DNA of 64,000 nt from Marivita sp. (GTDB taxonomy: Bacteria; Pseudomonadota; Alphaproteobacteria; Rhodobacterales; Rhodobacteraceae). Below, in pieces: positions 16,559 to 39,480 of this stretch. The translations under genes and the position numbers were made by a program. Positions within the stretch are counted from its first letter, which is position 1. Each line of letters begins with the position of its first letter. The notes below the pieces were generated by a model, which searched no databases, was not told where the DNA came from, and was given only the letters and a program-made list of their open reading frames with translations. The stretch lies in NCBI RefSeq assembly GCF_020055675.1, contig NZ_JAIPUS010000011.1, positions 774 through 64,773 of the forward strand, in the 5' to 3' direction.

Positions 16559-16864
16559 GTGATTCCTCCCTCTCGCGATAGGATGGCCCCCTATCCGGTC
16601 TGGCGACAGTGTTCCCGTTTCCATCTCAATCGTAAAGGTGCAAACCGCAAGCGTTTTTCAGCAGGCTCCCCTGCCTGGTTGCGGCAGAGATCCGAACGGG
16701 CAGTCCAGATACGGCCCGCAAAAACGCGATGTCGGCCATTGCAAAAGCCGGTCTTTGCGAAACACGCCTTCCACTTGGATCACCACATCGCCGCCAAGGA
16801 TCCGATCGCGGACAATCCCGCGTCAATGACCAAGGTCAGCCCATCAGGTGTTTGGCCCCTCATG

Positions 16865-18643
16865 TCAGGCAACAGTCTGCGGACGCATGTCCGCCGGATC
16901 GATTCCCGCAACAGCAACCGGCGCCTTCATGGCGTCGCGGCGGAACGGCTCACCCAGTTCCTGATTGATCATCGCTTCGATCAGCGTGGTGGTGCCGTTC
17001 TGCATCTGATCCGTGATCGCGGTATTCAACGCGTCTGTCAGGTCGGCCATCGTCCGGACCTGAATGCCCTTGAGGCCGCAAGCCGTTGCGACGCCCGCGT
17101 AGCTGACACCTTCGTCGAGTTCCGTGCCGACGAAATTGTCGTCATACCACAACGTCGAGTTACGCTTTTCGGCGCCCCATTGGTAGTTGCGGAAGACGAT
17201 CATGGTGATCGCCGGCCATTCCGGGCGACCTATGGCGGTAAGTTCAGGCACGGCGATACCGAAGGCCCCGTCGCCCGCGAAACCGACAACTGGCACATCA
17301 GGGCAACCAATCTTCGCCCCGACGATGGACGGCAGCCCATAGCCACAGGGACCGAACAGGCCGGGCGCAAGGTATTTGCGCCCCTCCTCGAAGGACGGAT
17401 AGGCGTTGCCGATGGCGCAGTTGTTCCCGATATCGGACGAGATGATCGCCTCTCTCGGCAATGCAGACTGGATCGCGCGCCAGGCCATGCGGGGACTCAT
17501 CCAGGCCGGTTTTGCCGCGCGGGCGCGTTCGTTCCAGGTGGTGCCGGGATCGTCGTCTTCGTGATCCATGCTGGACAGTTGCTGCGCCCAGGTGGATTTC
17601 GTTTTCGCGATGGTGGCTTGCCGGTCGTCACGGCCCTCGTCGCCTGCCGTATCCGACAGGCGCGCCAGAATGCCCTCGGCCACCTTTTTCGCATCGCCGA
17701 CAATGCCGACGCTGATGGTCTTGGTCAGGCCGATGCGATCGGGATTAATGTCGACCTGAATGATTTTCGCGTCCTTTGGCCAGTAGTCGATCCCGTAACC
17801 CGGCAAGGTCGAGAACGGGTTGAGCCGCGTCCCGAGACACAGCACCACGTCCGCCTTGGAAATCAGCTCCATCCCCGCCTTCGAGCCGTTATACCCCAAC
17901 GGCCCTGCAAACAGCGGATGTGAGCCGGGAAAGGCGTCGTTGTGCTGATAGCCAACACAGACGGGTGCCGTCAGTCGTTCGGCAAGCTCTATCGAGGCCG
18001 GGATCGCCCCGGCAAGGACGACACCCGCGCCGTTGAGGATGACCGGGTTGCTGGCGTTCGACAGCAGGTCCGCCGCCTGTTGGATCGCGCCATCGCCGCC
18101 CGATGGACGTTCGAATTCCACCACTTCGGGCAGCTCGATGTCGATCACCTGGGTCCAGAAGTCGCGCGGCATGTTGATCTGCGCCGGCGCCGAGGCACGC
18201 TTGGCATTCAGGATCACGCGGTTGAGAACTTCGGCCACGCGGGAAGGATCGCGGACTTCTTCCTGATAAGCGACCATGTCTTCGAACAGTTTCATCTGCT
18301 CGACTTCCTGGAAGCCACCCATCCCGATTGTCTTGTTGGCCGCCTGCGGCGTCACCAACAGCAACGGGGTATGGTTCCAGTAAGCGGTTTTCACAGCCGT
18401 GACGAAATTGGTGATACCGGGGCCGTTCTGGGCGATCATCATCGACATCTTTCCCGATGCGCGGGTGTATCCATCCGCGATCATCCCGCCGGAGCCTTCA
18501 TGCGCACAATCCCAGAAGGTGATCCCCGCCTTGGGAAAGATGTCCGAGATCGGCATGAAAGCCGATCCGATGATCCCGAACGCATGTTCGATACCGTGCA
18601 TCTGGAGGACTTTGACAAAGGCTTCTTCGGTGGTCATTTTCAT
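16865..18643 (-). CDS. xsc: Sulfoacetaldehyde acetyltransferase (ThDP)
   Basis: MKMTTEEAFVKVLQMHGIEHAFGIIGSAFM, AGDGAFG...FRNYQWGAEKRN, NQELGEPFRRDAM. Confidence 0.95.
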   Translation of the reverse strand: MKMTTEEAFVKVLQMHGIEHAFGIIGSAFMPISDIFPKAGITFWDCAHEGSGGMIADGYTRASGKMSMMIAQNGPGITNFVTAVKTAYWNHTPLLLVTPQAANKTIGMGGFQEVEQMKLFEDMVAYQEEVRDPSRVAEVLNRVILNAKRASAPAQINMPRDFWTQVIDIELPEVVEFERPSGGDGAIQQAADLLSNASNPVILNGAGVVLAGAIPASIELAERLTAPVCVGYQHNDAFPGSHPLFAGPLGYNGSKAGMELISKADVVLCLGTRLNPFSTLPGYGIDYWPKDAKIIQVDINPDRIGLTKTISVGIVGDAKKVAEGILARLSDTAGDEGRDDRQATIAKTKSTWAQQLSSMDHEDDDPGTTWNERARAAKPAWMSPRMAWRAIQSALPREAIISSDIGNNCAIGNAYPSFEEGRKYLAPGLFGPCGYGLPSIVGAKIGCPDVPVVGFAGDGAFGIAVPELTAIGRPEWPAITMIVFRNYQWGAEKRNSTLWYDDNFVGTELDEGVSYAGVATACGLKGIQVRTMADLTDALNTAITDQMQNGTTTLIEAMINQELGEPFRRDAMKAPVAVAGIDPADMRPQTVA

Positions 18644-23833: not shown

Positions 23834-24835
23834 TCAAGCGGCCTGTGTGGCCATCAACTCCTTCCAGCGGTGGCAGGACACGGCATGTCCCGCGCCGTCG
23901 ATTTCCAATTGCGGCTCGACCTGTTTGCAATGGTCGATCGCATGCGGACAGCGCGTGTGGAATTTGCAGCCCGAGGGCTGGTTCGTGGGTGACGGGATTT
24001 CGCCTGTCAGCTTTTGCACCGCACCCCGATCATCGGGATCAAGCGACGGGATCGCCGAAAACAAGGCCCTCGTGTAGGGATGACGCGCTGCTTCGAAAAG
24101 CTTGCGCGTGGGCGCGGTTTCGACCAGCCGGCCCAGATACATGACCGCGACATGATCACAGGTATGGGCAACCACCGACAGATCATGACTGATGAACATG
24201 AATGTAACGCCCATGTCGGACTGGATCTGCTTCAAAAGATTCAGAACATCCGCCTGGATCGACACATCGAGCGCGGCGACGCTTTCATCGGCAACGATGA
24301 AGTTCGGAGCCGAGACAAGCGCGCGCGCGATCGAGATCCGCTGACGCTGGCCGCCAGAAAATGCATGCGGGAAACGACGCAGATGCTCTAGGTTGAGCCG
24401 GCATTTCGCCGCGATCTCGCGCACGCGCTTGTCGGTTTCCTGACGCGTTTTGGTCAGGCCCATCACTTCCAGCGGTTCGGCGATAATGTCGCGCACCGTC
24501 ATGCGCGGGCTCAAGGCCGCGTATGGATCCTGAAAGATCAGCTGCGCCCGTTTGCGATAATCCTTGAGCTGGTTCTTGGTGATGTTTTCGAGGTCGTATT
24601 CCACCTCTCCATCGCTGTAATGCGCGCCGCCCCCTGTGATCGGAACTGCCTTGAGAAGCGCGCGCCCCAGCGTTGTCTTGCCCGACCCGCTTTCCCCGAC
24701 AAGTCCAAAGACAGATCCCTTTTCGATGTCCAGCGACACGTCATCGACTGCCTTGAGGATCTGCTTGCTGAACAGGCCGGAGCCTATGGGAAACCCGACG
24801 GACAGGCTCTTCGCTCGGATCAGTATGTCGCTCAC
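23834..24835 (-). CDS. Oligopeptide-type ABC ATP-binding protein (OppF-like)
   Basis: GESGSGKT, FSGGQRQRI, DESVAALD, C-terminal CKFHTRC. Confidence 0.9.
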   Translation of the reverse strand: MSDILIRAKSLSVGFPIGSGLFSKQILKAVDDVSLDIEKGSVFGLVGESGSGKTTLGRALLKAVPITGGGAHYSDGEVEYDLENITKNQLKDYRKRAQLIFQDPYAALSPRMTVRDIIAEPLEVMGLTKTRQETDKRVREIAAKCRLNLEHLRRFPHAFSGGQRQRISIARALVSAPNFIVADESVAALDVSIQADVLNLLKQIQSDMGVTFMFISHDLSVVAHTCDHVAVMYLGRLVETAPTRKLFEAARHPYTRALFSAIPSLDPDDRGAVQKLTGEIPSPTNQPSGCKFHTRCPHAIDHCKQVEPQLEIDGAGHAVSCHRWKELMATQAA

Positions 24836-25827
24836 GCCATCTCCTCCGTGTAGATATGACATGCAACACGATGCGACCCGTCAAGATCGCGGTCTTTCGG
24901 GTCGACTTGCTTGCAGACATCGCCAACCACCTGGCGACAGCGGGTGTGAAACACACATCCTGATGGCCGTTCCAACGGAGACGGAATATCACCGGGCACA
25001 GGGGTCAGCGGCGCATCAATATCATCCAGTTTCGGCAGCGCGGCGATGAGTCCTTGTGTGTATGGATGCTTGGGCTGGCGGATCACATCACGCACCGGAC
25101 CGGTTTCGATCATGCGTCCCAGATACATCACATTCACCTTGTCGGCAGTCTGGGCCACGACACCCAGGTCGTGCGTGATAAAGACGATCCCCATCTGGAA
25201 TTCCGATACGAGATCTTTCATCAGGTCGATCACCTGCGCCTGGATCGTCACGTCCAGAGCGGTGGTCGGCTCATCCGCGATCAGAAGCTTGGGCTGTGTC
25301 GAAAGTGCCATGGCGATCATCGCGCGCTGCCGCATCCCGCCGGACAACTCGAACGCATATTGATTGAACCGCTTGCCAGCGTCCGAAATCCCGACACGGT
25401 CGAGCATCTCGATGGACCAGCGTTTTGCCTGTTCCTTGGTGTAGTCGCCATGCAGTTGCAGCTGTTCGACCATCTGGTTGCCGATGCTGATCGCGGGGGC
25501 GAAACTGGCCATCGGTTCCTGGAAAATCATCGAAACGGCGCCTCCGCGCACGATGTTCAACTCCTTCGGCGTCTTCAGCGACAAGACATCGACCGGGCCG
25601 GTCTCGGTGTGCAGAGTGATCTTGCTTTCAGGGCTGTAGACCGCGTTCCTGGCATTGAGATGCATCAGCGCCTTGGCGGTGACGGACTTGCCAGAGCCGC
25701 TTTCGCCGACCAGCCCCATGACCTCGCTCTTGTCGAGCGAGAAGCTCACATTGTCGACAGCCGTGATCAATCCCTCGTCGGTACGGAATTGCAGCGTCAG
25801 GTTTTCAACATCAAGCAAAGCCGTCAT
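24832..25827 (-). CDS. Oligopeptide-type ABC ATP-binding protein (OppD-like)
   Basis: GESGSGKS, LSGGMRQR, DEPTTALD, CVFHTRC. Confidence 0.9.
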   Translation of the reverse strand: MTALLDVENLTLQFRTDEGLITAVDNVSFSLDKSEVMGLVGESGSGKSVTAKALMHLNARNAVYSPESKITLHTETGPVDVLSLKTPKELNIVRGGAVSMIFQEPMASFAPAISIGNQMVEQLQLHGDYTKEQAKRWSIEMLDRVGISDAGKRFNQYAFELSGGMRQRAMIAMALSTQPKLLIADEPTTALDVTIQAQVIDLMKDLVSEFQMGIVFITHDLGVVAQTADKVNVMYLGRMIETGPVRDVIRQPKHPYTQGLIAALPKLDDIDAPLTPVPGDIPSPLERPSGCVFHTRCRQVVGDVCKQVDPKDRDLDGSHRVACHIYTEEMA

Positions 25828-27023
25828 TTGTTGTTATCCGAATAGGGGTCGGCTGCGTCGCGCAGACCGTCGCCGACAAACACGAACGCCATCACCAGTG
25901 CGATGAAAAAGATCACGGGGATGAAGTACCATTGATAGTTGAGCAGCACATCCGCGCTGGTCACGTTCTGGAGCATGACCCCGAGACTGTTGACCGGATC
26001 CTTGAGGCCCAGCCCGATAAAGGACAGCGCGGTTTCCGACAGCACCATGTACGGAAACGAGATCACCAGATCCACGATAATGTAGCTGGTAAAACTGGGC
26101 AGCAAATGCCGCCGGATCACATGGCCCGAGGACGCGCCACACAACTGCGCCGCCAGCACGTATTCCTGATTGCGCTCGGTCAGAAGATGCGTCCGCACCC
26201 GCCGCGCCAAGGTGGGCCAGCCGATCAGCCCGAGGATCAGGGATATGTAGAAGAACCGTTCCTCTGCCGAAAGCTCTGGCGGCATGAAGGCAGCCACAGC
26301 CATGAACAGCGGGATCGCGGGCACCGTTCGGACGGCATCTGTGATCATCTGCAACACGGAATCGATCCAGCCGCCATAGTATCCCGACACACCCCCGATC
26401 ACGAGCGCCAGGACAAAGGCGATAAAGACGCCGATGGTGCCCACCTGAAGCGAGGTCCAGATCGCGTGGAAGGTGCGCGAGAAGATGTCCTTGCCGCTCG
26501 CATCCGTGCCGAAGACATGCACAAAACCCTCTTGGGTGCCAAACAGATGCGTGTCCATCGGGATGAAGCCGAACAGCTTGTACTCCCAGCCCTCGACGAA
26601 GAAATAGACGTAGTTCCGCTCGTCCTCGTTCACCGTCGTCACCCAGCGGAAATTCGTTTCCAGGGACCGTTCCCGCTCCACGGCGTGCACGAAGGGGCGC
26701 AGGGAACAGCCAGTGTCATCACAGAACATCGGAACCTGCGGCGCGCCGTTGGTGTAATCGTCATTCTTGCCCGCTATGGTCGGATTGTACGGCGACAGGA
26801 ACGGCGCAAAGAGGCCTGTCAGGATCAAGAAGGCCAGCACGCAGGCGGCGACCATCGCCGACCGTTGTTTCTTGAACCGTGCCCAGATCAGCTGGCCCTG
26901 CGAGGCGGTGAAATACGCCTCTTTCGACCTGCGCTGCACCGCGTCTTCTGTTTCGACCACCTGCACATGGGGGCCGGTGGTCTCTGCGAGGTTCGGCTGC
27001 AGGGGATCCGGTGTCGTCGTCAT
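25824..27023 (-). CDS. ABC permease (OppC-like)
   Basis: FGTDASGKDIFSR, EYVLAAQLCGAS..HVIRRHLLP, ETALSFIGLG. Confidence 0.9.
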   Translation of the reverse strand: MTTTPDPLQPNLAETTGPHVQVVETEDAVQRRSKEAYFTASQGQLIWARFKKQRSAMVAACVLAFLILTGLFAPFLSPYNPTIAGKNDDYTNGAPQVPMFCDDTGCSLRPFVHAVERERSLETNFRWVTTVNEDERNYVYFFVEGWEYKLFGFIPMDTHLFGTQEGFVHVFGTDASGKDIFSRTFHAIWTSLQVGTIGVFIAFVLALVIGGVSGYYGGWIDSVLQMITDAVRTVPAIPLFMAVAAFMPPELSAEERFFYISLILGLIGWPTLARRVRTHLLTERNQEYVLAAQLCGASSGHVIRRHLLPSFTSYIIVDLVISFPYMVLSETALSFIGLGLKDPVNSLGVMLQNVTSADVLLNYQWYFIPVIFFIALVMAFVFVGDGLRDAADPYSDNNK

Positions 27024-27027
27024 GGCG

Positions 27028-28032
27028 TCACCTCACAATGCTTTTGCGGACGCGCGGGTCCAGAACGGCCAGCATCACATCCGTCAGAAAGTTCAGCGAC
27101 ACGATGGACGCCGTCAGAAGGAAGATGATCGCGCCGGCAAGCTGTTGGTCATTCGACCGTGCCAGCGCCTCGATCAACAGCGCCCCCGCCTCGGTCAGCG
27201 TCAGGATGAGGGCCACGATGGGCAATTCGTTGAAGATGCGATTGAGATCGAACCCGAGGCTGTTGATGATCGGCCCGAGCGCATGACGCGCCGGGTAATT
27301 CCACAAAAGCCTGCGCCCATGCACACCGCGGGCCGACGCAGCCGTGACATAAAGCTTGCCAATCTCGTCGGACATGAGGGCGCGCACCGTCTGAAGCGCA
27401 AAGGCCGTGGCCGACCAACCAAGAATGAAGATGGGAAGCCAAGCATTGCTGAGCAGGTCTTTCATCCGCCCCCAACTCCAGTCCGCATCGCGATATTCGG
27501 CGGAAAAGAGGCCGGTCAGCGTGTCCCCGAAATACACGGTCGAGAACAGCATGATCATCAGCGCCAGCAGGAAATTCGGCAGCGCCAGGCCAAGATAGCT
27601 GAACAGGCGCAACGAATTGTTCAGAACCGCGTTTTGCGAGGCCGCCGCAATGATCCCGACGGGCAGGGCGATGGCATAGGCAAGCGCCAGAGACGCCAGA
27701 CACAGGCCAAGCGAGATCCAGAACTTGTCACCCATCAATTGCGCGATATTCACCCGCAGGATGCAGCTTTCGCCGAATTCGCCCTGAAAGGCGTTGACGA
27801 TCCACTTGCTCCACCGTTCAAGAAACGGGCGGTCAAGGCCCAGTCGCACGCGTTCGGCTTCGATATCGGCCACCGAAATGCCGGAGCCTTGTGTGTTCTT
27901 GAAGGCCAGATAGCGTTCGGCACAATCGCCGGGGACAAACTCCATCAGCGAAAACACGACAAGCGAGACGATCACCAATGTGAGCATCGCGAAAACAGCG
28001 CGTGTCGCAACAAAACGAGCAAAGTTCAGCAT
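27028..28032 (-). CDS. ABC permease (OppB-like)
   Basis: LGLDRPF, ALPNFLLALM, EAA-like loop YVTAASARG. Confidence 0.88.
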   Translation of the reverse strand: MLNFARFVATRAVFAMLTLVIVSLVVFSLMEFVPGDCAERYLAFKNTQGSGISVADIEAERVRLGLDRPFLERWSKWIVNAFQGEFGESCILRVNIAQLMGDKFWISLGLCLASLALAYAIALPVGIIAAASQNAVLNNSLRLFSYLGLALPNFLLALMIMLFSTVYFGDTLTGLFSAEYRDADWSWGRMKDLLSNAWLPIFILGWSATAFALQTVRALMSDEIGKLYVTAASARGVHGRRLLWNYPARHALGPIINSLGFDLNRIFNELPIVALILTLTEAGALLIEALARSNDQQLAGAIIFLLTASIVSLNFLTDVMLAVLDPRVRKSIVR

Positions 28033-28151
28033 GAAGAACGTCCCTGCAAGATGTCCAAATCCCCGATTGTCACGGGCTGTTTTCCAGACAACACTCAGTC
28101 CCTAAACCGCTGCGGACACGCAAAGCCCGCCCGCAGCAGAGTCACACGGGC

Positions 28152-30191
28152 TTATTCGTCCAGCCACCATTGCGTGGCACGGTACGGATAGGTCCGGTAG
28201 TATTCGTAGGAATGCGTCTTGAAGTCGGCAAAGTTCTTCAGATCGTTGTTCTGATAAATCGGTGCCGGAGCATTCACAGTGCCGATGAACATCATGTTCT
28301 CGACCATCGCCTTGACCAGATCATTGCCAAGCTGCTCGAACTCCGCGGTGCCTTGGGCGGCGGACTGAAGCGCGTTGATGTCGTCGATCATGTCCTTGGC
28401 CCATTGCGGAGGCTCGACACCCTCGGCACCATCGGAATCGATCCACTCGGCCCAGAGCATCGCGTTGCGCACACCGAAGTAGTTTTCATACGGCGGCACC
28501 CACAATTCGTTGTTGCCCAGAACAATCGCCAGCGGCTGTGATTTGCGCCACATGGCCACGTCAAGCTGGTTCGAGGACTGCGCCGACCGGTACTCGTCCG
28601 GCGTCACTTCCTTGACCACGGACTGGATCCCCACATCGGCCCAGTTCTGTGCCACGAGTTCAACGGTCTGACCGGCCACGCCCTGGGTCGAGAAGTTGAG
28701 GTTCAGCACAAGCTTGTCGCCGTTCGGCAATTCGCGGAAGCCGTCACCGTCGGTGTCTTCCATGCCCAGCGCATCAAGCGCAGCATTGGCCGCATCTGGA
28801 TCATACTCGGCCTTGTAGGTCAGCCAGTCCTGATCCACGAATTCCGGCAACGGCGAGAACCCCACATATTGCTGCGGTGTGCCCTGACCGAAGAAGCCAA
28901 GCTCGTTCAGATCTTCGCGGTTGATCGCAACCGACATCGCCTCGCGGAAGGACAGATCGCTGAACACTGCGCGCTTGGCCGGGTCCTCATGCGTGACGTT
29001 GAAACCGAACACGCTCTGCGTGATCTCGGAGCGCAGATGAATGGTGTAGTCGCTGCTTTCCTGGTTCTCCAGGAGGATCGGCGCAGAGGCGAGTTGCAGG
29101 GATTGAGACTTGTAATCCACCTCACCGTTCACGAGCTTGAGGATACGCACCTCGTTGTCGTTGATATAAAGCTCATCCTGCGTCGAGATATAGGGCAACT
29201 GCTGGCCCGTCGGATCGACCTGGAAGAAGTAGGGATTCGCCACCAACTGACGGCCCTCGGTCGTGTCGTTGATGTAGATGTGCGATTCCAGCGTCGGATA
29301 GGTCGCCTTGGGCAGATCGTCGACAATATCGGCACGCGACAACATCGGCGTCGGCGTGTCGGTCCAGTCGGAGTTGCCATAATACGCAAGAATGGCGTCA
29401 TAACCGTCTTCGAACCCGAGGCTCTGCGCATAGCTGTCCGCATCCGGGTTCACATCCGGGTGGAACTGGCCAAGGAAATGCTTCGGCTGGAATGGCTGCG
29501 AATAATGCGTCGCAAAATGCGCGATCAAACCGGGCTTCGGTGCCGGCAGGTTGAAGATCACCGTGGTGTCGTCCGGTGCTTCGATGGTCATCGGCTCGCC
29601 CGCGACGGTGATGTAATCCTTGGGCGTTTCGGAGATGTTTTCGTCCAGCATCAGGTTGTCGTGGTAGAACACGATATCCGCACTGGTGAACGGCTCACCG
29701 TCGGACCACTTGTGGCCTTCGCGCAGCTTGATCGTCAGTTGGGTGAAATCGTCGTTCCAGTCCCATGACTTCGCCACGTTCGGCACGATGGTCTGAAGAT
29801 CGTCTGAGTAGCGCATCAGGCTGACATGGCGCACCGACAGGAAATCGGACGTGCCCGCCTCGGTCGCGTTGGACAAGACGTTCAGTTCACCGCCATATTC
29901 GCCAACACTGTTATAGGGCACCATGACAAGAGGTTCGGCCGGGATCCGCTCGGAGAGCGGTGGAAGCTCCGGGTTGCCCTTGATCTGCGCGTTCAGCGCT
30001 TCAATCTCGGGGTTGGTGGAAAACTCCATCACGCAGCCAGCGGCGTCCTGAAAGGCACTGAGCTCGTATTGCTGGGGATATTCGCCGGGCGCGATGCCCT
30101 GCATGTCATCCAAGGTGACCGCCGGGCAATTGGCATAGGCCGCTGCCGGAAGGGCAAGCAGGGCAACGCCTGAAAGTAATAGTCGTTTCAT
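28152..30191 (-). CDS. ABC substrate-binding protein, family 5, about 680 aa
   Basis: Signal peptide MKRLLLSGVALLALPAAAYA; LPPLSERIP..P, YGG, PNVAKSW.WNDD, LREGHKWSDGEPFTSADI; GGAG RBS. Confidence 0.88.
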   Translation of the reverse strand: MKRLLLSGVALLALPAAAYANCPAVTLDDMQGIAPGEYPQQYELSAFQDAAGCVMEFSTNPEIEALNAQIKGNPELPPLSERIPAEPLVMVPYNSVGEYGGELNVLSNATEAGTSDFLSVRHVSLMRYSDDLQTIVPNVAKSWDWNDDFTQLTIKLREGHKWSDGEPFTSADIVFYHDNLMLDENISETPKDYITVAGEPMTIEAPDDTTVIFNLPAPKPGLIAHFATHYSQPFQPKHFLGQFHPDVNPDADSYAQSLGFEDGYDAILAYYGNSDWTDTPTPMLSRADIVDDLPKATYPTLESHIYINDTTEGRQLVANPYFFQVDPTGQQLPYISTQDELYINDNEVRILKLVNGEVDYKSQSLQLASAPILLENQESSDYTIHLRSEITQSVFGFNVTHEDPAKRAVFSDLSFREAMSVAINREDLNELGFFGQGTPQQYVGFSPLPEFVDQDWLTYKAEYDPDAANAALDALGMEDTDGDGFRELPNGDKLVLNLNFSTQGVAGQTVELVAQNWADVGIQSVVKEVTPDEYRSAQSSNQLDVAMWRKSQPLAIVLGNNELWVPPYENYFGVRNAMLWAEWIDSDGAEGVEPPQWAKDMIDDINALQSAAQGTAEFEQLGNDLVKAMVENMMFIGTVNAPAPIYQNNDLKNFADFKTHSYEYYRTYPYRATQWWLDE

Positions 30192-30399: not shown

Positions 30400-30417
30400 A
30401 TGACAGATCCATGACAG
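30400..30417 (-). promoter_or_regulatory. Pho box (PhoB site) upstream of the ABC operon
   Basis: Minus strand CTGTCAT-GGAT-CTGTCAT: two consensus heptamers at 11-bp period, oriented toward the SBP gene. Confidence 0.75.
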
Positions 30418-30426
30418 TCCAACGGG

Positions 30427-31926
30427 TCACGACGCCACCTTAACGCCGTCATCGGTAATCTTCGTGCGGGAAAACGTGCCATCGGCATGGATCATGCGAT
30501 GGCGGAGCAAATCCTGCATCAAATCGAGCATTGTCTGCGAATGTGATGAATTTTTCGCCAGGTTTTGCGTCTCGGTCCCACCCGACACATCCATGAGAAC
30601 AGGGGGCAAGCCCCCGGCAAACTGCACATAGCGCAGAGTGTCTTTGCGCAGCACGGCCAGCTTGGCCTCGTCGATGGACAGGCCATGCGCCGTTTGCCAA
30701 GCCGTTGGCGTGATCGGGTCAGCGAAATCAAGCTCGGACACCGAAACCTGTTTCCAGGCCTCCGGAACGGTCCGGTTCAGAAACGGTTTCAGGCTGCGCC
30801 CATCCATGGAATGGAGCACCGACAGGCCAAGGCAGTCGAGGATTGTCGGCGTCACATCTATCGACTCTGTCGGCGCCATCACGACATGACCGCGCGCTTG
30901 GGCCGCTGGATCGCGGATGATCAGCGGGACATGGAAAGCGGCGTCGTGGAACGTTGTCTTGCCCCAAATACCGTAATCACCCAACAAGTCGCCATGATCG
31001 GCAGTCAGGACGATCAGCGTGTCGTCATACTGGCCCGTCTCCCTGAGCCAGCCGATCAGCCGGCCGACATGATGATCGACCTCGGTCGCCAGCCCGAAAT
31101 AGAGCTTGCGGATCATCTTGGTGGTTTCGTCTGTCGCGGGCAGATCGGGAAACCCGATGACAGTCGACGCGGCAGAGCTTTGCATCCGCGCGGTGGTCAG
31201 GAACGGGTGCCAATCCGGGTCCGCAGCCTGTCGCGGCGGGGGCATCCGCGCAGCATCATACATCGCGTTGTAAGGCGCCGGGGCGACAAACGGGGGATGC
31301 GGGCGAATATAGGTCAGCAGCGCGAACCAGCCGGAATCGCGCTGCGACAGGTCGGCAAGCGTCCGGTCGGTCAGGAAGGCGGTATCACTGTCGCCGGCTG
31401 CGTAAAGGGCCGGAGCGTCAGGCGCATCTCCCGCGGGTCGGTACAGGGCCGGATAGGGCGGGACATCATACCCCTTCTGGCCCAGGTCGGTCTCCCACGC
31501 GCGGGAATCGCCTTCCAGACGCATTCGCACCACTTCGGTGAAACCGGGCATCACCTCTTCATAGGAAAACAACCGCGGATCGTCCGGGGGCAGGAACCGG
31601 GGATCCTGCGATGTGTCGGTATACCCAAAGAGCAGCGGATCATGCCCCTGCGCGCGCATCACGCTGGCAAGGTTCGGCGTATCCCGCTTGAGCGGCGTCC
31701 CGTTGCGGGTCGCTCCGTGGTTCGACGCGTATTGCGCCGTGAGCAGCGACACCCGAGACGGCCCGCAGGGCGAGGTGACGGAATAATGCGACTGGAACGC
31801 GACCGAGTCATCGGCCAGCTTACGGATATTGGGCAGGTCAAGATGCTCTGACAGAGCGCCGAAAACGCAATCAGCGCGCAGCTGATCGATTACGATAAAA
31901 AGCGTATTCGTCTTGGTTTTTGTCAC
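30427..31926 (-). CDS. Alkaline phosphatase superfamily, phosphonate monoester hydrolase/phosphodiesterase (PMH/PehA-like)
   Basis: LFIVIDQLRAD, SPCGPSR..LLT (CxPxR), YIRPHPPFVAPAPY, TADHGDLLGD...GK; no signal peptide. Confidence 0.72.
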   Translation of the reverse strand: MTKTKTNTLFIVIDQLRADCVFGALSEHLDLPNIRKLADDSVAFQSHYSVTSPCGPSRVSLLTAQYASNHGATRNGTPLKRDTPNLASVMRAQGHDPLLFGYTDTSQDPRFLPPDDPRLFSYEEVMPGFTEVVRMRLEGDSRAWETDLGQKGYDVPPYPALYRPAGDAPDAPALYAAGDSDTAFLTDRTLADLSQRDSGWFALLTYIRPHPPFVAPAPYNAMYDAARMPPPRQAADPDWHPFLTTARMQSSAASTVIGFPDLPATDETTKMIRKLYFGLATEVDHHVGRLIGWLRETGQYDDTLIVLTADHGDLLGDYGIWGKTTFHDAAFHVPLIIRDPAAQARGHVVMAPTESIDVTPTILDCLGLSVLHSMDGRSLKPFLNRTVPEAWKQVSVSELDFADPITPTAWQTAHGLSIDEAKLAVLRKDTLRYVQFAGGLPPVLMDVSGGTETQNLAKNSSHSQTMLDLMQDLLRHRMIHADGTFSRTKITDDGVKVAS

Positions 31927-32009
31927 GGCACATCCCAGAACTGGACGGATGATGCCCTGAACAAATCATATGTAAAGAGAGGCGTTCGCTATACCTCCAT
32001 AGGTCAAAC

Positions 32010-32888
32010 TTATACTTTGGCCTGCGCAACCACCCGTTTCACAGACTTGAGAAACCCCCGGATCAACGGCACGTCGCACCGCGCGGACAGGGTGACAAGC
32101 GATTCCGACATGCCGATGTCCACATCTTCGAACGGTAACGTCAGCAGCCGCCTGTCGTGCCCGACCTCCGCCTCGCTGATAAACCCGATCCCGGCACCAG
32201 ACGCCACGACTTCGCGCATTGCCTCACGCCCCTCAACCTCGATCGCGGGCATGAGGGACAACCCGAGGCGCATCGCTTCTTCTTCAACAATCGCGCGGGT
32301 CCGCGACCCCGCCTCGCGGAAAACAAGTGGATACCTGGCCAGATCCCTGAACCGCAGCGCCCGCGTTCCCTTGCGAAGATACCCCTTGCCCGCAAGGCCA
32401 AGGATCGGTGTACGGCCCAGATCGACCGCATCAAGATCGGGTGCCGTGACAGAGTTGCCGATCACGCCGATCTCGGCTTCGTAGTTGCGCAGGCGGCGCA
32501 ACAAGTCTTCTGTATTGCCGGTCCGGATCGTGACGAACACATCCGGGTTCGAGGCACGAAACCGGCTGACCGCGGCCGTGATATGCATCGCGGAATCGGC
32601 CATGATCCGAAGATGCCCGGACAGCGCCGCGCGGTTCTCATCGAACAGCGCGGCGATCCGGTCCTCGACTTCGAACATCTCGCTTGTCAGGCGAAAAAGC
32701 GCTTCGCCGGCCTTGGTCATGCGCACCTGCCGCGCCTCGCGCGAAAACAGCAGCACGTCGTGTCGCTGTTCCAGTTGCCGGACCTGATCGGACACCGAGG
32801 GTTGCGATATGTTCAGCGCCCGCGCTGCGCTGGAAAAACCGCCATGCAAAGCAACGTGATGAAACGCCCGCAAATGACTGTATCGCAT
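32010..32888 (-). CDS. LysR regulator of aminoethylphosphonate catabolism (phn-associated LysR)
   Basis: HTH FSSAARALNISQPSVSDQVRQLE; divergent from phnW. Confidence 0.85.
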   Translation of the reverse strand: MRYSHLRAFHHVALHGGFSSAARALNISQPSVSDQVRQLEQRHDVLLFSREARQVRMTKAGEALFRLTSEMFEVEDRIAALFDENRAALSGHLRIMADSAMHITAAVSRFRASNPDVFVTIRTGNTEDLLRRLRNYEAEIGVIGNSVTAPDLDAVDLGRTPILGLAGKGYLRKGTRALRFRDLARYPLVFREAGSRTRAIVEEEAMRLGLSLMPAIEVEGREAMREVVASGAGIGFISEAEVGHDRRLLTLPFEDVDIGMSESLVTLSARCDVPLIRGFLKSVKRVVAQAKV

Positions 32889-32916: not shown

Positions 32917-32931
32917 ATAACCAAGGGTTAT
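32917..32931. promoter_or_regulatory. Putative LysR recognition site
   Basis: Palindrome ATAACC-AAG-GGTTAT containing T-N11-A in the lysR/phnW divergent gap. Confidence 0.6.
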
Positions 32932-33010
32932 TGAAGAATAGCAAACAAAGATTTCAAATATGAATGCCCGCATTGCATATCGGACACAGGATCAAATTCG
33001 GAACCCCGCC

Positions 33011-34192
33011 ATGTCGTCCAGCCCCCTGCCCATGCCAGCACTCGGCGAACCCTATCTTCTCACCCCCGGCCCGCTGACAACCGCCTGTTCCGTCAAACAG
33101 GCGATGCTGAAGGACTGGGGCAGTTGGGACGACGATTTCCGCGCCCTCACCCGCGACATGCGCCGTCGCCTGCTTGCGATGATCGGAGACACCGCGCCGG
33201 AGTATGACTGCGTGCCGATCCAGGGCTCGGGCAGCTATTGCGTCGAAGCGATGCTGGGTAGCTTTGTGCCACGCGACGGTAAGGTGCTTGTCCTGGCAAA
33301 CGGCGCCTACGGCCTGCGCGCGGCGCAGACACTGGATTATCTGGGACGCGCATATCACGTGCTCGACAAGGGCGATTACCTGCCTCCGCGCGGCACGGAG
33401 GTGGCACAGATCCTCGCCGAGGACCCAATGATCACCCATGTGTTGGCGATCCATTGCGAAACCTCCAGCGGTATACTGAACCCGTTGGAAGAAATTGCCG
33501 AAGCAACGCAAGCCGCCGGGCGCAAGCTGCTGATCGATTCCATGTCGGCCTTTGGCGCGCTGCCGCTTGATCCCGGCGCTCTCAACTGCGCCGCCTTCGT
33601 ATCCTCGGCCAATAAATGCATCGAAGGTGTGCCCGGGTTCGGCTTCGTCATCGCCCGCAAGGAGGAAATTGACGCCTCCAGGGGCAACTCGCATTCCCTG
33701 TCGCTGGACGTGCACGCGCAATGGGCAACGATGGAGAAAACCGGACAGTGGCGCTACACCCCGCCGACCCATGTGGTCGCAGCGTTCCTCAAGGCGCTCG
33801 ATCTGCACGAGGCCGAAGGCGGCGTGCCCGCCCGTGGTGCGCGCTACACAAACAATCGGGACGTGGTCGTGCAGGGTTTGCGGGATCTCGGCTTTGAAAC
33901 ACTGCTCGAGGATCGCTGGCTCAGCCCGATCATCGTCACCTTTTTCTGCCCCGCCGATACAAACTTCACCTTCAAGGGATTCTATGACTCCATGAAAGCG
34001 CGGGGCTTCATCATCTACCCCGGCAAGCTGACCGTGGTGGAGTCTTTCCGCATCGGGGTGATCGGGCAAATGGATGAACACGTCATGCGCCGCGTGGTCG
34101 AAGCGGCCCGCGAGGCTCTGACTGACATGAACGTAAGCTGCGCGGCCCCACCCGCAGCCGCCCTCGAAGAACGCAAGAAACTCGCCGCCTGA
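33011..34192 (+). CDS. phnW: 2-aminoethylphosphonate:pyruvate transaminase
   Basis: YLLTPGPLTT, DWGSWD, HCETSSGILNP, SSANKCIEGVPG, QWRYTPPTHVV, FIIYPGKLT; start uncertain. Confidence 0.93.
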   Translation: MSSSPLPMPALGEPYLLTPGPLTTACSVKQAMLKDWGSWDDDFRALTRDMRRRLLAMIGDTAPEYDCVPIQGSGSYCVEAMLGSFVPRDGKVLVLANGAYGLRAAQTLDYLGRAYHVLDKGDYLPPRGTEVAQILAEDPMITHVLAIHCETSSGILNPLEEIAEATQAAGRKLLIDSMSAFGALPLDPGALNCAAFVSSANKCIEGVPGFGFVIARKEEIDASRGNSHSLSLDVHAQWATMEKTGQWRYTPPTHVVAAFLKALDLHEAEGGVPARGARYTNNRDVVVQGLRDLGFETLLEDRWLSPIIVTFFCPADTNFTFKGFYDSMKARGFIIYPGKLTVVESFRIGVIGQMDEHVMRRVVEAAREALTDMNVSCAAPPAAALEERKKLAA

Positions 34193-34202
34193 AGGAAGAG
34201 AC

Positions 34203-35462
34203 ATGCCCCTCACGAACCCCGTGGTCGCCAATGACCGCACCTACCCCGTGCCCAGAACCTGCGCGATTGCGATCTGTCTGGATGGCTGCGAACCGGAATA
34301 CCTTGAGGTCGCGATTGCCGAAGGTCTGATGCCGACACTCAAGCGCATCCGCGAAACCGGGACAGACCGTCTGGCCCATTCGGTGATCCCCTCCTTTACC
34401 AACCCCAACAACATGAGCATCGCCACCGGCCGCCCGCCTGCGGTGCATGGCATCTGCGGCAACTTCCTCTATGAGCCGGAAACCGGCCAGGAAGTGATGA
34501 TGAACGACCTGCGCTTCCTGCGCGCCCCGACCGTTTTCTCGAAATTCTACGAGGCCGGTGCGCGTGTCGCTGTCATCACCGCCAAGGACAAGCTGCGCGC
34601 GCTTCTGGGCGCTGGGCTGAAGTTCGACGAAGACCGCGCGATTGCGTTTTCCTCGGAACGGTCGGGCGACACGACGAAAGCGGAACACGGGATCGACAAG
34701 GCGTCGGACTGGCTCGGCATGCCGGTGCCCGAGGTCTATTCCGCTGACCTGTCGGAATTCGTCTTCGCCGCGGGCGTAAAGTTGCTGAAGGAGTGGAAAC
34801 CGGACGTGATGTACCTGTCCACGACCGACTACATCCAGCACAAGTTCGCCCCGGACGAACAAGGCGCCAAGGACTTCTACGCGATGTTCGACCGCTACCT
34901 GACCGAGCTTGACGCGATGGGTGCCGCCATCGTCGTGACCGCCGACCACGGCATGAAGCCCAAGCATGACGCCAATGGTGACCCGGCGGTGATCTACGTT
35001 CAGGATCTGCTCGACGAGTGGCTGGGCGAAGCCGCCGCCCGCGTGATCCTGCCGATCACCGACCCTTATGTCGTGCATCACGGTGCACTTGGGTCCTTTG
35101 CCACGGCCTACCTGCCCTCCGGCGCAGATCAGGCCGACATCATCGCCCGCCTGCGCGCTTTGCCGGAAATGCTCGAAGTTGTGGACAAGGCCACGGCTGT
35201 CCAGAAATACGACCTGCCCGCCGACCGGATCGGTGATATCGTGATGATCTCGACCGAGAACATGACCATCGGCACCAGCGCCCACCGTCACGACCTTGCC
35301 GCACTCAAGGAACCGCTCCGCAGCCATGGCGGCCTGACCGAACAAGAGGTCCCGTTCATCGTGAACCGCAAGATCGATTTGCCCGGCGCGCCCGTCTTGC
35401 GCAACTTCGATGCGTTCTTCTACGCCACCGCCGCCGCAGCCCTCGAAGAGGTGGAAGCATGA
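34203..35462 (+). CDS. phnA: Phosphonoacetate hydrolase
   Basis: [53 protein letters not shown]. Confidence 0.93.
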
Positions 35463-36898
35463 CCGACATCCGCCACGACCAGATGCGCATCGGCGGCGAA
35501 AAGGTCGATACCGACGCGCGCATCGAGGTGCGGTATCCCTATACCGACGAGGTGATCGGGACGGTGCCCGCTGGCAACGCAGACCACGCCCGCCGCGCAT
35601 TCGAGATTGCCGCGAACTACACGCCAAAACTCACCCGGTATGAACGCAGCCAGATCCTGCAACGGGCCGGGCAACTGATCGGCGAACGCCGCGATGACCT
35701 CGCCAAATGGCTGGTGCTGGAACTGGGCATCTGCCACCAGCACGCGATCTACGAGACCAAGCGCGCGCAGGATGTCTACCAATTCGCCGCCGCCGAAGCG
35801 CTCAAGGACGATAGCGAGGTGTTTTCCTGCGACCTCACCCACAACGGCAAGGCGCGCAAGATCTTCACCATGCGCGAACCGGTGCGCGCCATCAGCGCGA
35901 TCACCCCGTTCAACCACCCGCTCAACATGGTCAGCCACAAGATCGCGCCATCGATTGCGACCAATAATTGCATGGTCTGCAAGCCGACGGAATTGACACC
36001 ACTCACGGCGCTGACTTTGGCGGATATCCTCTACGAGGCGGGCCTGCCGCCCGAGATGTTCCAGGTGGTCACGGGGATGCCCGCCGACATCGGCGATGAG
36101 ATGATCACCAACGAGAATATCGATATCATCACCTTCACCGGCGGTGTTCCCGTCGGCAAACTCATCGCGGGCAAAGCAGGCTACAAACGCACCGCTCTGG
36201 AACTGGGCGGGAACGATCCCCTGATCGTCTGCAACGACCTGAGCGATGCCGACCTCGACAAAGCCGCGACCATCGCCGTGGCAGGCGCCACCGGCAATTC
36301 CGGCCAGCGGTGTACCGCGATCAAACGCATCCTCGTGCAGGAAAGCGTGGCGGACCGCTTCGTCCCGCTGGTGGTCGAGAAGGCCAAGAAGATCAAATTC
36401 GGCGATCCGCAGGACCCGGAAACCGAACTTGGCTGCGTGATCCATGCGCAAGCCGCCGAGCTTTTCGAAAAGCGCGTCACCATGGCCGCAGATCAAGGCG
36501 CCAAGGTTCTCTACAATCCCGGTCGTCAAGGCGCGCTGCTGCCCCCCATCGTTGTCGATCACGTGCCCCATGAAAGCGAACTGGTGATGGAGGAAACCTT
36601 CGGCCCCATCATCCCCATCGTGCGCGTGCCCGACGATGACACCGAGGTGATGCGCATCTCGAACAGCACCGACTTCGGTCTGTCTTCGGGCGTGTGCACC
36701 AACGATCTGAACCGCGCGATCGCCTATATCAACGGCTTGAATGTCGGCACCTGCAACATCTGGGAACAGCCCGGCTACCGGATCGAGATGTCCCCGTTCG
36801 GCGGCATCAAGGACAGCGGCAACGGCGTGAAGGAGGGCGTCATCGAAGCGATGAAATTCTTCACCAACGTCAAAACCTACAGCCTGCCATGGCCATGA
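35459..36898 (+). CDS. phnY: Phosphonoacetaldehyde dehydrogenase
   Basis: [47 protein letters not shown]; follows phnA. Confidence 0.92.
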
Positions 36899-36902
36899 AG
36901 GA

Positions 36903-37730
36903 GTGACGCTGTCCATTCTCGGGATCGTCCTGACAGCGGCGTTCCTGCACGCGCTGTGGAACGCGCTCGTCAAGGCATCGGGTGACCGTGCGATCACCTT
37001 GGGGCTGGTGGCAGCGGGCCATTGCGTGCCTGCGATCCTGCTGCTGCCGATGGCGCCGGTCCCCGCGATGGCGGCGCTGCCCTATATCGTGGCCTCCACG
37101 GTGATACACTGGGGCTACTATTACTTCCTGAACATGGCTTACCGCTTTGGCGATCTGTCCCTGATCTATCCCATAGCCCGTGGCGCGGCCCCGGTGATGG
37201 TCGCACTGGGCGCGATGGTCTGGGCCGACGAGGGTCTGCCAGTCCTCGCGTGGATCGGGATAGTCACGGTATCCGCCGGGATCATGATCCTCGCAGCCAT
37301 TCGCCATGCCGACACGCGGGGCATCGCGGCGGCCCTGTGCACCTCGGCTATCATCGCTGCGTATTCGATCATTGACGGCATCGGCATCCGCGTCTCCGGC
37401 GCGCCATTGGGATATGTGATCTGGCTCTTCGCCGCAGAGATCTTTGTGGTGTTCTTTGTCGGCGCCACGCGGGTCCAACGCCTTCGGGCGCTGCCGGGCA
37501 AGGCAGTGACCCTGGGCCTTTTGGGCGGTGCGATCTCGGGCCTGGCTTACGCCCTTGCGCTTTACGCCAAAACCCTCGCACCCATCGGCATCGTCTCGGC
37601 CATTCGCGAAACCTCGGTGATCTTCGCCGCCTTGATCGGTGTCTACTGGATGGGCGAAGGCCCGGCCCGACGCCGGCTCATTGCCGCGTCTGTCGTTGCG
37701 CTGGGTGTGATCCTGCTGACGTTCTCATGA
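36903..37730 (+). CDS. EamA/DMT membrane protein (phosphonate-utilization associated type)
   Basis: AAFLHALWNALVK, DLSLIYPIARG, AIRETSVIFAALIG; 10 TM; last gene of phnWAY operon. Confidence 0.82.
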   Translation: MTLSILGIVLTAAFLHALWNALVKASGDRAITLGLVAAGHCVPAILLLPMAPVPAMAALPYIVASTVIHWGYYYFLNMAYRFGDLSLIYPIARGAAPVMVALGAMVWADEGLPVLAWIGIVTVSAGIMILAAIRHADTRGIAAALCTSAIIAAYSIIDGIGIRVSGAPLGYVIWLFAAEIFVVFFVGATRVQRLRALPGKAVTLGLLGGAISGLAYALALYAKTLAPIGIVSAIRETSVIFAALIGVYWMGEGPARRRLIAASVVALGVILLTFS

Positions 37731-37742
37731 TGCACCACCGGA

Positions 37743-38609
37743 TCACAGCTTGCGAAAGATTCGCGTCGACTGGAACATCTCCTCCAGCGCCTCGATCCGG
37801 TCCAGCGCGGTTTCGGACACACGCGTCTGCACCTCTGCGACAAGCGCCTCGATCACGAGGTTGATCGCCAGCGTCGAATCCCAGCTTGACGGCGCCTCGA
37901 TCTGCGCATTCACCACATGATCCGCCTGTCGCGAAATCGGGGACCCCCATTGATCCGTGAACAGGATGATCTGCGCGTCGCGATCCTTGGCCAACTCCGC
38001 CAGTCGGTCCAGGTCACGCTCATACCGCCGGATGTCGAACAGGATCAGAACCGACATGCGATCCATATCAAGAATGTATTGCGGCCACACGTTGGGGGAC
38101 GCGCCCAAAAGCGTGACCCCCGGCCGGATGATCTGAAGATGATTGTAGAAATAGTCCGCATTTGACCGGGTAATGCGCCCGCCGGACAGGAACAGCCGCC
38201 GCTCCCGATCGGCCAACACGGCGGCAATCGCGTCCACCGTCCCCGGCTCGAGCCGGTCGATGGTGCGGCTCAGATTGTCGAACACGGCTTCGGCAAACGC
38301 CTTGAACGCGGCAGAGACCGGCTTTGCGTCGCCCCACCCATCCCGCTTGGCGATGGGCGTCTTGAACTGCGCCGACGCTTCATCGCGCAGTGCGGCCTGC
38401 AAGTCCGGGAACCCGTCAAAGCCCAGCTTGCGCGCCAATCGGATCACCGTCGGCGTCGAGACCCCCGCCGCTTCGGCAATACGCGTGATCGATTGCAAGC
38501 CTCCCACGGGGTAGTCGCGCATCAAAACACCCGACAATTGCCGTTCTGCAGGCGTCAAGGCGCTTGCAGTGTCATGCAGCCGATCCTTCACTGAAAGTGC
38601 TTTTGCCAT
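37743..38609 (-). CDS. MurR/RpiR family regulator
   Basis: LTPAERQL...SITRIAEAAGVSTPTVIRLARKLGFDGF plus SIS domain. Confidence 0.9.
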   Translation of the reverse strand: MAKALSVKDRLHDTASALTPAERQLSGVLMRDYPVGGLQSITRIAEAAGVSTPTVIRLARKLGFDGFPDLQAALRDEASAQFKTPIAKRDGWGDAKPVSAAFKAFAEAVFDNLSRTIDRLEPGTVDAIAAVLADRERRLFLSGGRITRSNADYFYNHLQIIRPGVTLLGASPNVWPQYILDMDRMSVLILFDIRRYERDLDRLAELAKDRDAQIILFTDQWGSPISRQADHVVNAQIEAPSSWDSTLAINLVIEALVAEVQTRVSETALDRIEALEEMFQSTRIFRKL

Positions 38610-38623
38610 AAAATGATGCCGTT

Positions 38624-38639
38624 TGTAGCAATCGTTACA
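38624..38639. promoter_or_regulatory. Putative RpiR-family operator
   Basis: TGTA-GCAATCGT-TACA inverted repeat in the divergent promoter. Confidence 0.45.
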
Positions 38640-38712
38640 TCGTTGCTTGGATTGGTACAAAAATCAACCAAATTTTCTTGACATGGCCCGAAACAGCACG
38701 ACAAATGAAATA

Positions 38713-39480
38713 GTGATCCAGAACACCCCACATACGATTCTGACCGCGCAGGATAGCGCCGCCGAGGTGATCCACCCCGAGGGCGCCGCGCCGATCTGCC
38801 TTGTCTGCGAACACGCCAGCGCCCGGATTCCTGCGGTGCTGGACGATCTGGGTCTCGCGCCCGAGGACCGCTACAGCCACGCCGCATGGGACATCGGCGC
38901 GCGCGATCTGGCCGTTGCACTGGCGCAAAAGCTCGACGCACCGCTTGTCGCGGCGGGCGTGTCGCGGCTCGTCTATGACTGCAACCGCCCGCCAGAAGCA
39001 CCGGATTCGATCCCGGCACGGAGCGAACTGGTAGAGGTGCCCGGCAATGCCGACCTGAGCAACGACGACCGACAGGCGCGCGTTGCCTCGGTCTACAGAC
39101 CCTTCCGCGACATGCTGTGCCGCAAGCTCGATCAATTCGAGAAACCTCCGATCATGGTGACATTGCACAGCTTCACGCCTGAATGGTTCGGCGTTCCACG
39201 CAACGTTGAACTCGGCCTGCTGCACGACAACGACGACCGGTTGGCAAAGGCAATGCTCGCAGAGGCGCCGCACGACCTGGATACACGGCTCAACGCCCCT
39301 TACGATGCCAGCGATGGTGTAACGCACACGCTGCGCGAACACGCGGTCCCGCGGGGGCTTCACAATGTCATGGTCGAAATTCGCAACGACCTGATCTCCG
39401 ACAGCACCGGGATTGCGCGATTTGCCGATATCCTTGGCGATATGCTGACACGGGCAATGGTCCGGGAGGTGGCGCGATGA
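38713..39480 (+). CDS. N-formylglutamate amidohydrolase family (putative gamma-glutamyl-glycine amidohydrolase)
   Basis: LVCEHAS, HAAWDIGA, VSRLVYDCNRP, LHSFTP, HTL.EHA, VMVEIRNDLI; start uncertain. Confidence 0.82.
   Translation: MIQNTPHTILTAQDSAAEVIHPEGAAPICLVCEHASARIPAVLDDLGLAPEDRYSHAAWDIGARDLAVALAQKLDAPLVAAGVSRLVYDCNRPPEAPDSIPARSELVEVPGNADLSNDDRQARVASVYRPFRDMLCRKLDQFEKPPIMVTLHSFTPEWFGVPRNVELGLLHDNDDRLAKAMLAEAPHDLDTRLNAPYDASDGVTHTLREHAVPRGLHNVMVEIRNDLISDSTGIARFADILGDMLTRAMVREVAR

Follow-up and report, generated by a model that had tools for sequence, protein, structure and literature searches.

A gene in the 64,000-nt stretch of the Marivita sp. contig NZ_JAIPUS010000011.1 analysed here (the whole stretch is called the window below) almost certainly encodes an enzyme of the phosphonate monoester hydrolase (PMH) clade of the alkaline phosphatase superfamily. 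Across 251 genera of the host's family, PMH homologues occurred together with 2-aminoethylphosphonate (2-AEP or AEP) catabolism and with a family-5 ATP-binding cassette (ABC) importer, and the tightest partner of the PMH gene was this downstream importer, not the adjacent LysR-type regulator gene. We judge the chances to be about even that the enzyme releases 2-AEP in the cytoplasm from an imported ester. More tentatively, PMH and the sugar-type importer might form the missing de-esterification module of marine phosphonate cycling, which would supply the Roseobacter group with 2-AEP from phosphonoglycan or phosphonolipid fragments, define the native substrate class of PMHs, and operate with a nucleophile that is matured, or used unmodified, without a canonical formylglycine-generating enzyme (FGE).

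For over 15 years, PMHs have been model enzymes for the study of catalytic promiscuity, and we know of no established physiological substrate for them. In the sea, phosphonate occurs mostly as esters of glycans, glycoproteins or lipids (PMC8931226, PMC5649143), and the characterised degradation routes (PhnWX, PhnWAY and carbon–phosphorus (C-P) lyase) and transporters (AepXVW, AepP and PhnSTUV; PMC8316502) all handle free phosphonates. Sosa et al. (2017) offered, as speculation, a PMH-like enzyme that would release phosphonates from esters of marine polysaccharides (PMC5649143); monoester hydrolysis is not mentioned in a 2023 review of phosphonate degradation, and the proteomics supplements of PMC8316502, which cover Pseudomonas putida only, contained nothing on the PMH studied here. 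A September 2026 paper on Amphidinium-associated bacteria reported pmh beside phnW–phnX in Roseibium and Phycocomes isolates, and pmh and lysR with phnWYA in Marivita sp. AC-MB-28, as annotation only and with no function proposed (PMC13608971). The solved structures of the PMH family and the pmh–lysR–phnWYA adjacency in Marivita are therefore already known. What is new is a quantified and specific three-way tie of PMH, sugar-type importer and AEP catabolism, together with the regulatory anatomy of the locus and a testable native role. If this role is correct, the module would name an enzyme and a transporter for the ester cleavage that precedes the known phosphonate routes. It would also provide concrete test substrates for PMHs and a marker gene for use in marine phosphorus-cycle surveys, and would make the formation of formylglycine in bacteria without FGE a well-defined problem.

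Family membership and catalytic residues

The hydrolase matched the Pfam Sulfatase family, and its top NCBIfam model was NF045661 PehA (phosphoric/sulfuric ester hydrolase; 394 bits), with lower scores for choline sulfatase (TIGR03417, 167 bits) and arylsulfatase (166 bits). Since the PehA equivalog cut-off is 900 bits, the protein is a PehA relative and not a PehA equivalog; it likewise fell short of the choline sulfatase cut-off of 433 bits. Among solved structures, 4UPK, a 'phosphonate monoester hydrolase', ranked first with ~60% identity over the full length (565 bits), followed by the other solved PMHs, namely 4UPH (323 bits), RlPMH (2VQR, 320 bits) and BcPMH (2W8S, 298 bits). The 'sulfatase family proteins' 4UPL and 4UPI reached 190 and 179 bits, respectively, and no arylsulfatase or choline sulfatase exceeded 190 or 126 bits. 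Alignments to the four PMHs extended from residues 3-5 to residues 494-496 of 499, C-terminal extension included.

RlPMH and BcPMH/PehA, the founding PMHs/phosphodiesterases, share with the window PMH the fold, the full-length alignment, the nucleophile motif and the metal ligands. Residues D14, C54, D310 and H311, which were invariant in 13 homologues, correspond to the metal and nucleophile residues D12, C57 (formylglycine), D324 and H325 of RlPMH, and Q15, N75, Y102, H210 and K323 match its second-shell and leaving-group residues Q13, N78, Y105, H218 and K337. The two founding enzymes lie on a distant branch, however, and differ at the position of RlPMH T107, which is Asp104 in the window PMH as well as in SpPMH (4UPK) and AtPMH (4UPH). 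The Asp104 codon lies at 31617-31615, in a GYTDT block that reads GYTTT around the active-site Thr107 of RlPMH and BcPMH. By alignment, Asp104 appears to be a clade-level active-site difference, representing within-clade variation rather than loss, and it could bear on substrate preference.

In a maximum-likelihood tree of the window PMH, 74 relatives and the four solved PMHs, with RlPMH and BcPMH as the outgroup, the window PMH fell inside a clade of 22 sequences (99% support by the Shimodaira–Hasegawa-like approximate likelihood ratio test, SH-aLRT) that grouped with 4UPK. The sister in this tree was the 4UPK/SpPMH subclade, which comprises Ruegeria, Leisingera, Phaeobacter and Aliiroseovarius. 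SpPMH, which we take to be the Silicibacter/Ruegeria pomeroyi enzyme from the Hollfelder laboratory's studies of promiscuity in the alkaline phosphatase superfamily, has in common with the window PMH the CGPSR motif, the RPHPP and GYTDT blocks, the catalytic residues and the absence of a signal peptide. We know of no native substrate for either enzyme. The original prediction had called the protein PMH-like and proposed a phylogenetic comparison with sulfatases; because the tree, which contains PMHs and no sulfatases, and the bit scores (298-565 for PMHs versus at most 190 for sulfatases) place it with PMHs, clustering with sulfatases was not observed. Sequence, phylogeny and the conserved catalytic residues thus all support its identity as a PMH.

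We consider it very improbable that a sulfated sugar is imported and then hydrolysed in the cytoplasm by this protein as a genuine sulfatase or sulfonate-ester hydrolase. Such an activity would fit the sulfatase fold with its CxPxR motif, the measurable sulfatase and sulfonate-ester activities of PMHs and the resemblance of the importer's substrate-binding protein (SBP) to binders of acidic oligosaccharides. However, the protein is nested in the PMH clade, far from the solved arylsulfatases and choline sulfatases in bit score; the Pho box and phn linkage described below point to phosphorus and not to sulfur; and the presence of PMH and that of FGE were uncorrelated (18/51 versus 68/200 genomes). 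The choline-O-sulfatase BetC (6FNY and others) resembles the window PMH in being a cytoplasmic, leaderless enzyme of the Cys-type sulfatase fold encoded beside a LysR gene, but it belongs to another clade, and the window PMH scored only 118-126 bits against solved BetC structures.

Upstream of the GTG at 31926, the PMH frame reaches a TGA at 31968-31966 before any ATG, GTG or TTG, which identifies this GTG as the start codon; a possible Shine–Dalgarno sequence, GGGA, lies 6 nt upstream. Because the metal-ligand Asp is residue 14, there is no space for a signal peptide, and the protein is therefore expected to be cytoplasmic. Solved PMHs also lack a signal peptide, so the absent leader characterises the family at large and is no peculiarity of the window protein. 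The anatomical description in the original prediction, which had comprised a CxPxR motif, a YIRPHPPF block, the absence of a signal peptide and a co-oriented LysR gene 83 bp away, proved accurate. CGPSR covers residues 54-58 (31767-31753) and YIRPHPPF residues 206-213, a leader is excluded by Asp14 and by alignments that begin at residues 3-5, and the LysR stop (32010) and the PMH start are separated by 83 bp on the same strand.

Co-occurrence with a family-5 importer and 2-AEP catabolism

We profiled one genome per genus across the 251 genera, calling PMH homologues at E <= 1e-60, PhnW above its model cut-off and SBP orthologues at E <= 1e-100. PMH was present in 51 genomes, PhnW in 53 and the SBP orthologue in 50, and all three were found together in 35. 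PMH and SBP co-occurred in 42 genomes, with 9 containing PMH only, 8 SBP only and 192 neither (odds ratio 112, p 1e-30); for PMH and PhnW, the corresponding counts were 38, 13, 15 and 185 (odds ratio 36, p 7e-22; both Fisher tests, uncorrected for phylogeny). Where PMH and SBP lay on the same contig, they were 175 bp to 11 kb apart in 31/31 cases, and PMH and PhnW were within 15 kb in 23/27 cases. In 11 genera, the gap between PMH and PhnW was 870-1330 bp, which corresponds to one LysR gene.

Two negative controls showed no such enrichment. The C-P lyase gene phnJ, which was present in 123/251 genomes, occurred in 20/51 genomes with PMH and 103/200 without it, and strong FGE-domain genes in 18/51 and 68/200, respectively. 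The association is therefore specific to AEP catabolism and does not reflect general phosphorus scavenging. One genus without PhnW (G008, contig 15, 12385-18225) carries a PMH homologue ~3.5 kb from phnJ, and in some lineages PMH may supply other routes of C-P cleavage.

We then searched 80 loci of PMH relatives, with 10-kb flanks, for the window's neighbour genes and clustered the neighbouring open reading frames. An orthologous family-5 (SBP5) ABC system adjoined the PMH gene in 24/80 loci, in three arrangements: downstream and co-oriented, convergent, or with PMH closing the ABC operon (L034, L035, L046 and L073). The entire layout of the window, with divergent phnWAY, lysR, PMH and ABC genes, was found in seven loci from at least five genera (two Marivita, Marivivens, Loktanella, Silicimonas, a Paracoccaceae metagenome-assembled genome (MAG) and a Roseovarius MAG), and 17 further loci kept the importer beside PMH in other arrangements, some of them convergent. 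PMHs of the RlPMH branch (L055, L065 and L067) also adjoined SBP_bac_5 transporters. PhnX (TIGR01422, 293 bits), which belongs to an alternative AEP route, was encoded near PMH in six loci (L021, L024, L035, L041, L059 and L071), accompanied by PhnW in the first four of these, and these loci included distant PMH branches and hosts outside the Rhodobacteraceae. We read the recurrent rearrangements, and the occurrence of either of two AEP routes, as a sign that the linkage is under selection. The link to 2-AEP catabolism that the original prediction had drawn from the LysR gene is supported by co-occurrence with PhnW, by proximity and by both phnWAY and phnWX contexts, and is stronger than could be seen from the window.

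The binding protein offers a clue to the cargo. Its nearest solved relative was the pectin-oligosaccharide binder SPH1118 (228 bits), followed by the unassigned 'oligopeptide-binding protein' 5IPW (211 bits) and the alpha-galactoside binder AgpA; binders of chitin and mannoside oligosaccharides were also among the closest solved relatives (for this ligand class, see PMC9314435), and peptide and nickel binders did not exceed 50 bits. As its nearest solved relatives bind oligosaccharides, we place the SBP in the sugar-binding branch of family 5. A PhnS/PhnS2-type AEP-binding protein above the cut-off was not found in the genome (best score 130 versus 393 bits). A precedent for such a system exists in Agrobacterium, where the family-5 SBP AccA imports a sugar phosphodiester that the cytoplasmic AccF cleaves (PMC4526662, PMC7356202). 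Taken together, the sugar-type SBP, the missing PhnS-type protein and the AccA/AccF precedent favour a small AEP ester, such as AEP-sugar or glyceryl-AEP, as the cargo.

The acc system (AccA with AccBCDE, and AccF) resembles the window in that a family-5 importer feeds a sugar phosphoester to a cytoplasmic esterase. It differs in that AccF is a GlpQ/UgpQ-type phosphodiesterase with no formylglycine motif, the substrate is a phosphodiester opine, and there is no link to C-P cleavage. UgpBAEC–UgpQ likewise combines a Pho-box-controlled ABC importer with a cytoplasmic esterase for phosphorus scavenging, but its SBP family and esterase fold are different, and its product is a phosphomonoester and not a phosphonate that needs PhnWAY. 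The coupling of an esterase gene to an ABC importer that characterises these import-then-hydrolyse systems was seen for PMH in 42/51 genera.

Alternatively, the ABC system might import free 2-AEP or a phosphonopeptide, with PMH being a promiscuous accessory that has no dedicated pathway step. In its favour, family-5 binding proteins are classically peptide binders, no PhnS/PhnS2-type protein of the genome reached the cut-off, and no known AEP transporter adjoins phnWAY. Nevertheless, we consider this improbable. The pairing of PMH with the importer is the strongest signal in our data (always within 11 kb) and persists where the neighbourhood contains no phn genes, PMH closes the importer operon in four loci, and the SBP is nearest to oligosaccharide binders. 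Furthermore, the EamA/TIGR03340 protein at the end of the phn operon is an alternative candidate for the transport of small phosphonates.

Control regions and the proposed role

A perfect Pho box lies between the PMH and SBP genes (Table 1), and Pho boxes with at most two mismatches were found upstream of the SBP gene in L003, L009, L021, L034 and L035. Where PMH closes the importer operon, it would share this control. In the window, the PMH gene appears to have a promoter of its own. A scan for sigma-70 promoters was by itself at chance level (1 match versus 0.9 expected), and our call rests on conservation within Marivita, as the block TCTTTACATATGA...CAT(C/G)AT is kept in the loci L003 and L004. 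Upstream of this predicted promoter, a dyad typical of LysR-type transcriptional regulators (LTTRs) overlaps the lysR stop codon, and the same position is occupied by such a dyad in L003 (ATAGGTTTTACCTAT) and L004. The ATA-N9-TAT pattern has a background rate of 0.045 per kb, and LTTR recognition sites classically have their centre at about -64, as here. A perfect ATAAC-N5-GTTAT occurs only once in the window, in the phnW–lysR control region, and in L003 both dyad sites read ATAGG-N5-CCTAT. In all three Marivita genomes, the dyad upstream of PMH matches the dyad class of the phnW–lysR region, which suggests that in Marivita the PMH gene is under LysR control. Co-transcription of lysR and PMH seems likelier in L007 and L009, where PMH follows lysR almost directly. 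Neither the gap between lysR and PMH nor that between PMH and the SBP gene contained a terminator-like site.

The logic of the proposed module would be import, de-esterification and then C-P cleavage. The importer, switched by PhoB at the perfect Pho box, would bring in a small 2-AEP monoester, for which an AEP-sugar fragment of phosphonoglycans and glyceryl-AEP from a deacylated phosphonolipid are candidates. Membership of the PMH clade, conservation of the catalytic residues, synteny, co-occurrence and the sequence motifs are shown by the data; the substrate, the direction of transport, binding by the regulators and the formation of formylglycine are inferred. In the cytoplasm, the PMH nucleophile at position 54 would attack phosphorus to yield an alcohol and free 2-AEP, which PhnW, PhnY and PhnA would turn into acetate and phosphate. 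In Marivita, an own promoter with an LTTR-type box would mean that PMH is induced together with phnWAY. The original prediction therefore stood in part. The PMH identity and the AEP link held, and the 2-AEP ester that it had proposed is still a candidate substrate, whereas it had missed the importer partner and its Pho box, the family-wide absence of a leader, and the published adjacency.

The Pho box also brings in another explanation, namely general scavenging of organophosphate diesters within the Pho regulon in the manner of Ugp/UgpQ. PMH would then be a phosphodiesterase acting on an imported glycero- or sugar phosphodiester, and its proximity to phnWAY would reflect the clustering of phosphorus-acquisition genes. 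Phosphodiesters are about as good substrates as phosphonate monoesters for RlPMH and BcPMH, the Pho box precedes the importer and not the PMH gene, and genes of the inositol-monophosphatase family and Na/Pi-symporter-like genes recur beside PMH in some loci. We nonetheless regard diester scavenging as unlikely, though it deserves serious consideration. The tie of PMH and the importer to PhnW is strong and specific, with none to the Pho-regulated, broad-range C-P lyase (39% versus 52%), and the linkage holds for the two non-homologous AEP routes phnWAY and phnWX. In addition, PMH lies directly behind an AEP-type LysR gene in at least 11 genera, and no phosphomonoesterase was consistently linked.

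Several observations weigh against the release of 2-AEP from an imported ester. PMHs are promiscuous and also hydrolyse phosphodiesters, sulfates and sulfonates, so family membership does not fix the substrate. PhnW is missing from 13/51 PMH-bearing genera, which would be in keeping with diester scavenging, and the association statistics carry the phylogenetic caveat given above. The SpPMH subclade (Ruegeria, Phaeobacter and Aliiroseovarius) has no adjacent SBP5 system or phn genes. No sugar- or glycerol-catabolic genes were consistently linked to the module, leaving the alcohol moiety without an indication; the genes beyond the module core were heterogeneous and included isocitrate lyase, threonine dehydrogenase/KBL, Lrp, methionine gamma-lyase and MlrC-like genes. 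In the window and the 80 loci, Pho boxes preceded the SBP gene only and in no case a PMH gene, and the evidence for the LysR box and the promoter comes from three closely related Marivita genomes. Finally, the original prediction had noted that the window contains no FGE, and this holds for the whole genome, in which a search for FGE or the anaerobic sulfatase-maturating enzyme (anSME) found none that was recognisable (best anSME match 19.6 bits).

Nucleophile maturation and neighbouring genes

The sole PF03781 gene of the genome (G000 contig 11, 159137-159706; L001 1336-2094, + strand) was considered as a maturase and rejected, as its product is short (252 aa), scores 80.7 bits compared with 200-280 bits for true FGEs, and is encoded directly downstream of nirK (copper nitrite reductase; TIGR02376, 446 bits). 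From this position, we regard it as NirV-like. About two thirds of the PMH-bearing genera (33/51) have no strong FGE-domain gene, and, with PMH and FGE uncorrelated, one may ask by what means, if at all, the Cys nucleophile undergoes maturation. In a branch of distant PMHs, L052 (~16378-17742) and L058 (~12145-13158) encode a true FGE of full length (233 bits) ~5 kb from PMH, so a maturase is linked in some lineages. Cys-type enzymes expressed in Escherichia coli are matured by an unknown system. Either such a system acts on the window PMH, or Cys54 is used unmodified. Only a ~tenfold loss is reported for Ser variants (PMC5488252).

The coordinates of the locus are compiled in Table 1. The LysR protein matched TIGR03339 phn_lysR ('aminoethylphosphonate catabolism associated LysR') best by far, at a score below the cut-off of 341 bits. 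Divergent from lysR, phnW, phnA and phnY (32960..36898) encode the route from 2-AEP to acetate and phosphate, and the best match of the EamA-type protein was TIGR03340, 'phosphonate utilization associated membrane protein'.

Table 1. Features of the PMH locus (positions in the window)
Feature	Position	Strand	Remarks
Family-5 ABC importer, five genes	23834..30191	-	Downstream of PMH, same strand
ATPase gene	23834-24862	-	
ATPase gene	24832-25827	-	
Permease gene	25824-27023	-	
Permease gene	27028-28032	-	
SBP gene	28152-30191	-	686-aa binding protein
Perfect Pho box CTGTCATGGATCTGTCAT	30400..30417	-	Begins 9 nt after PMH stop, ~190-210 nt upstream of SBP gene
PMH-clade hydrolase gene	30427..31926	-	499 aa, GTG start; PF00884 1.4e-41; 565 bits to 4UPK
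CGPSR formylglycine (Cys-type) motif	31753..31767	-	Residues 54-58; C54 aligns with C57 of RlPMH (2VQR)
Predicted sigma-70-like promoter for PMH, TTTACA-16-CATCAT	31949..31976	-	Consensus scan
LTTR-type dyad ATAAGTTTGACCTAT (ATA-N9-TAT)	31999..32013	-	Overlaps lysR stop; centre ~64 nt upstream of predicted transcription start (near 31942)
phn-type LysR regulator gene	32010..32888	-	Probable ATG start 32888; TIGR03339 264 bits
Perfect dyad ATAACCCTTGGTTAT in phnW–lysR control region	32917..32931	.	Candidate LysR box
phnW	32960-34192	+	548 bits, above equivalog cut-off
phnA	34203-35462	+	507 bits, above equivalog cut-off
phnY	35459-36898	+	762 bits, above equivalog cut-off
EamA-type membrane protein gene closing phn operon	36903..37730	+	TIGR03340 132 bits, cut-off 288

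Compared with the lysR–PMH–ABC–phnWAY layout of the window subclade, the relatives of SpPMH show a different conserved context that is equally uncharacterised. In L014, L015, L017, L018 and L020, the PMH gene is accompanied by a divergent DeoR/GlpR regulator gene, an Na/Pi-symporter-like gene, an EamA gene and a PotD/PotF-like ABC system. We considered the PotD-like SBP as a possible AepX and rejected it, as it belongs to SBP_bac_8 and not to pfam13343, the family of AepX/AepS (PMC8316502). An inositol-monophosphatase/HisN gene lies between lysR and PMH, or close to PMH, in L005 and L006 (both ~9025-9876, - strand) and also in L014 and L018, and this HisN-family neighbour may be a clue to what the alcohol is or to an intermediate that is a phosphomonoester.

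In 13 loci, among them phnWX and SpPMH-type contexts, the EamA/TIGR03340 protein gene had PMH or phn genes as neighbours. Beyond it, the window contains genes for an RpiR regulator and an N-formylglutamate-amidohydrolase-like protein (37743-39480), and this pair recurred near PMH and phn genes in L003, L007, L014, L028 and L038, which represent several genera.

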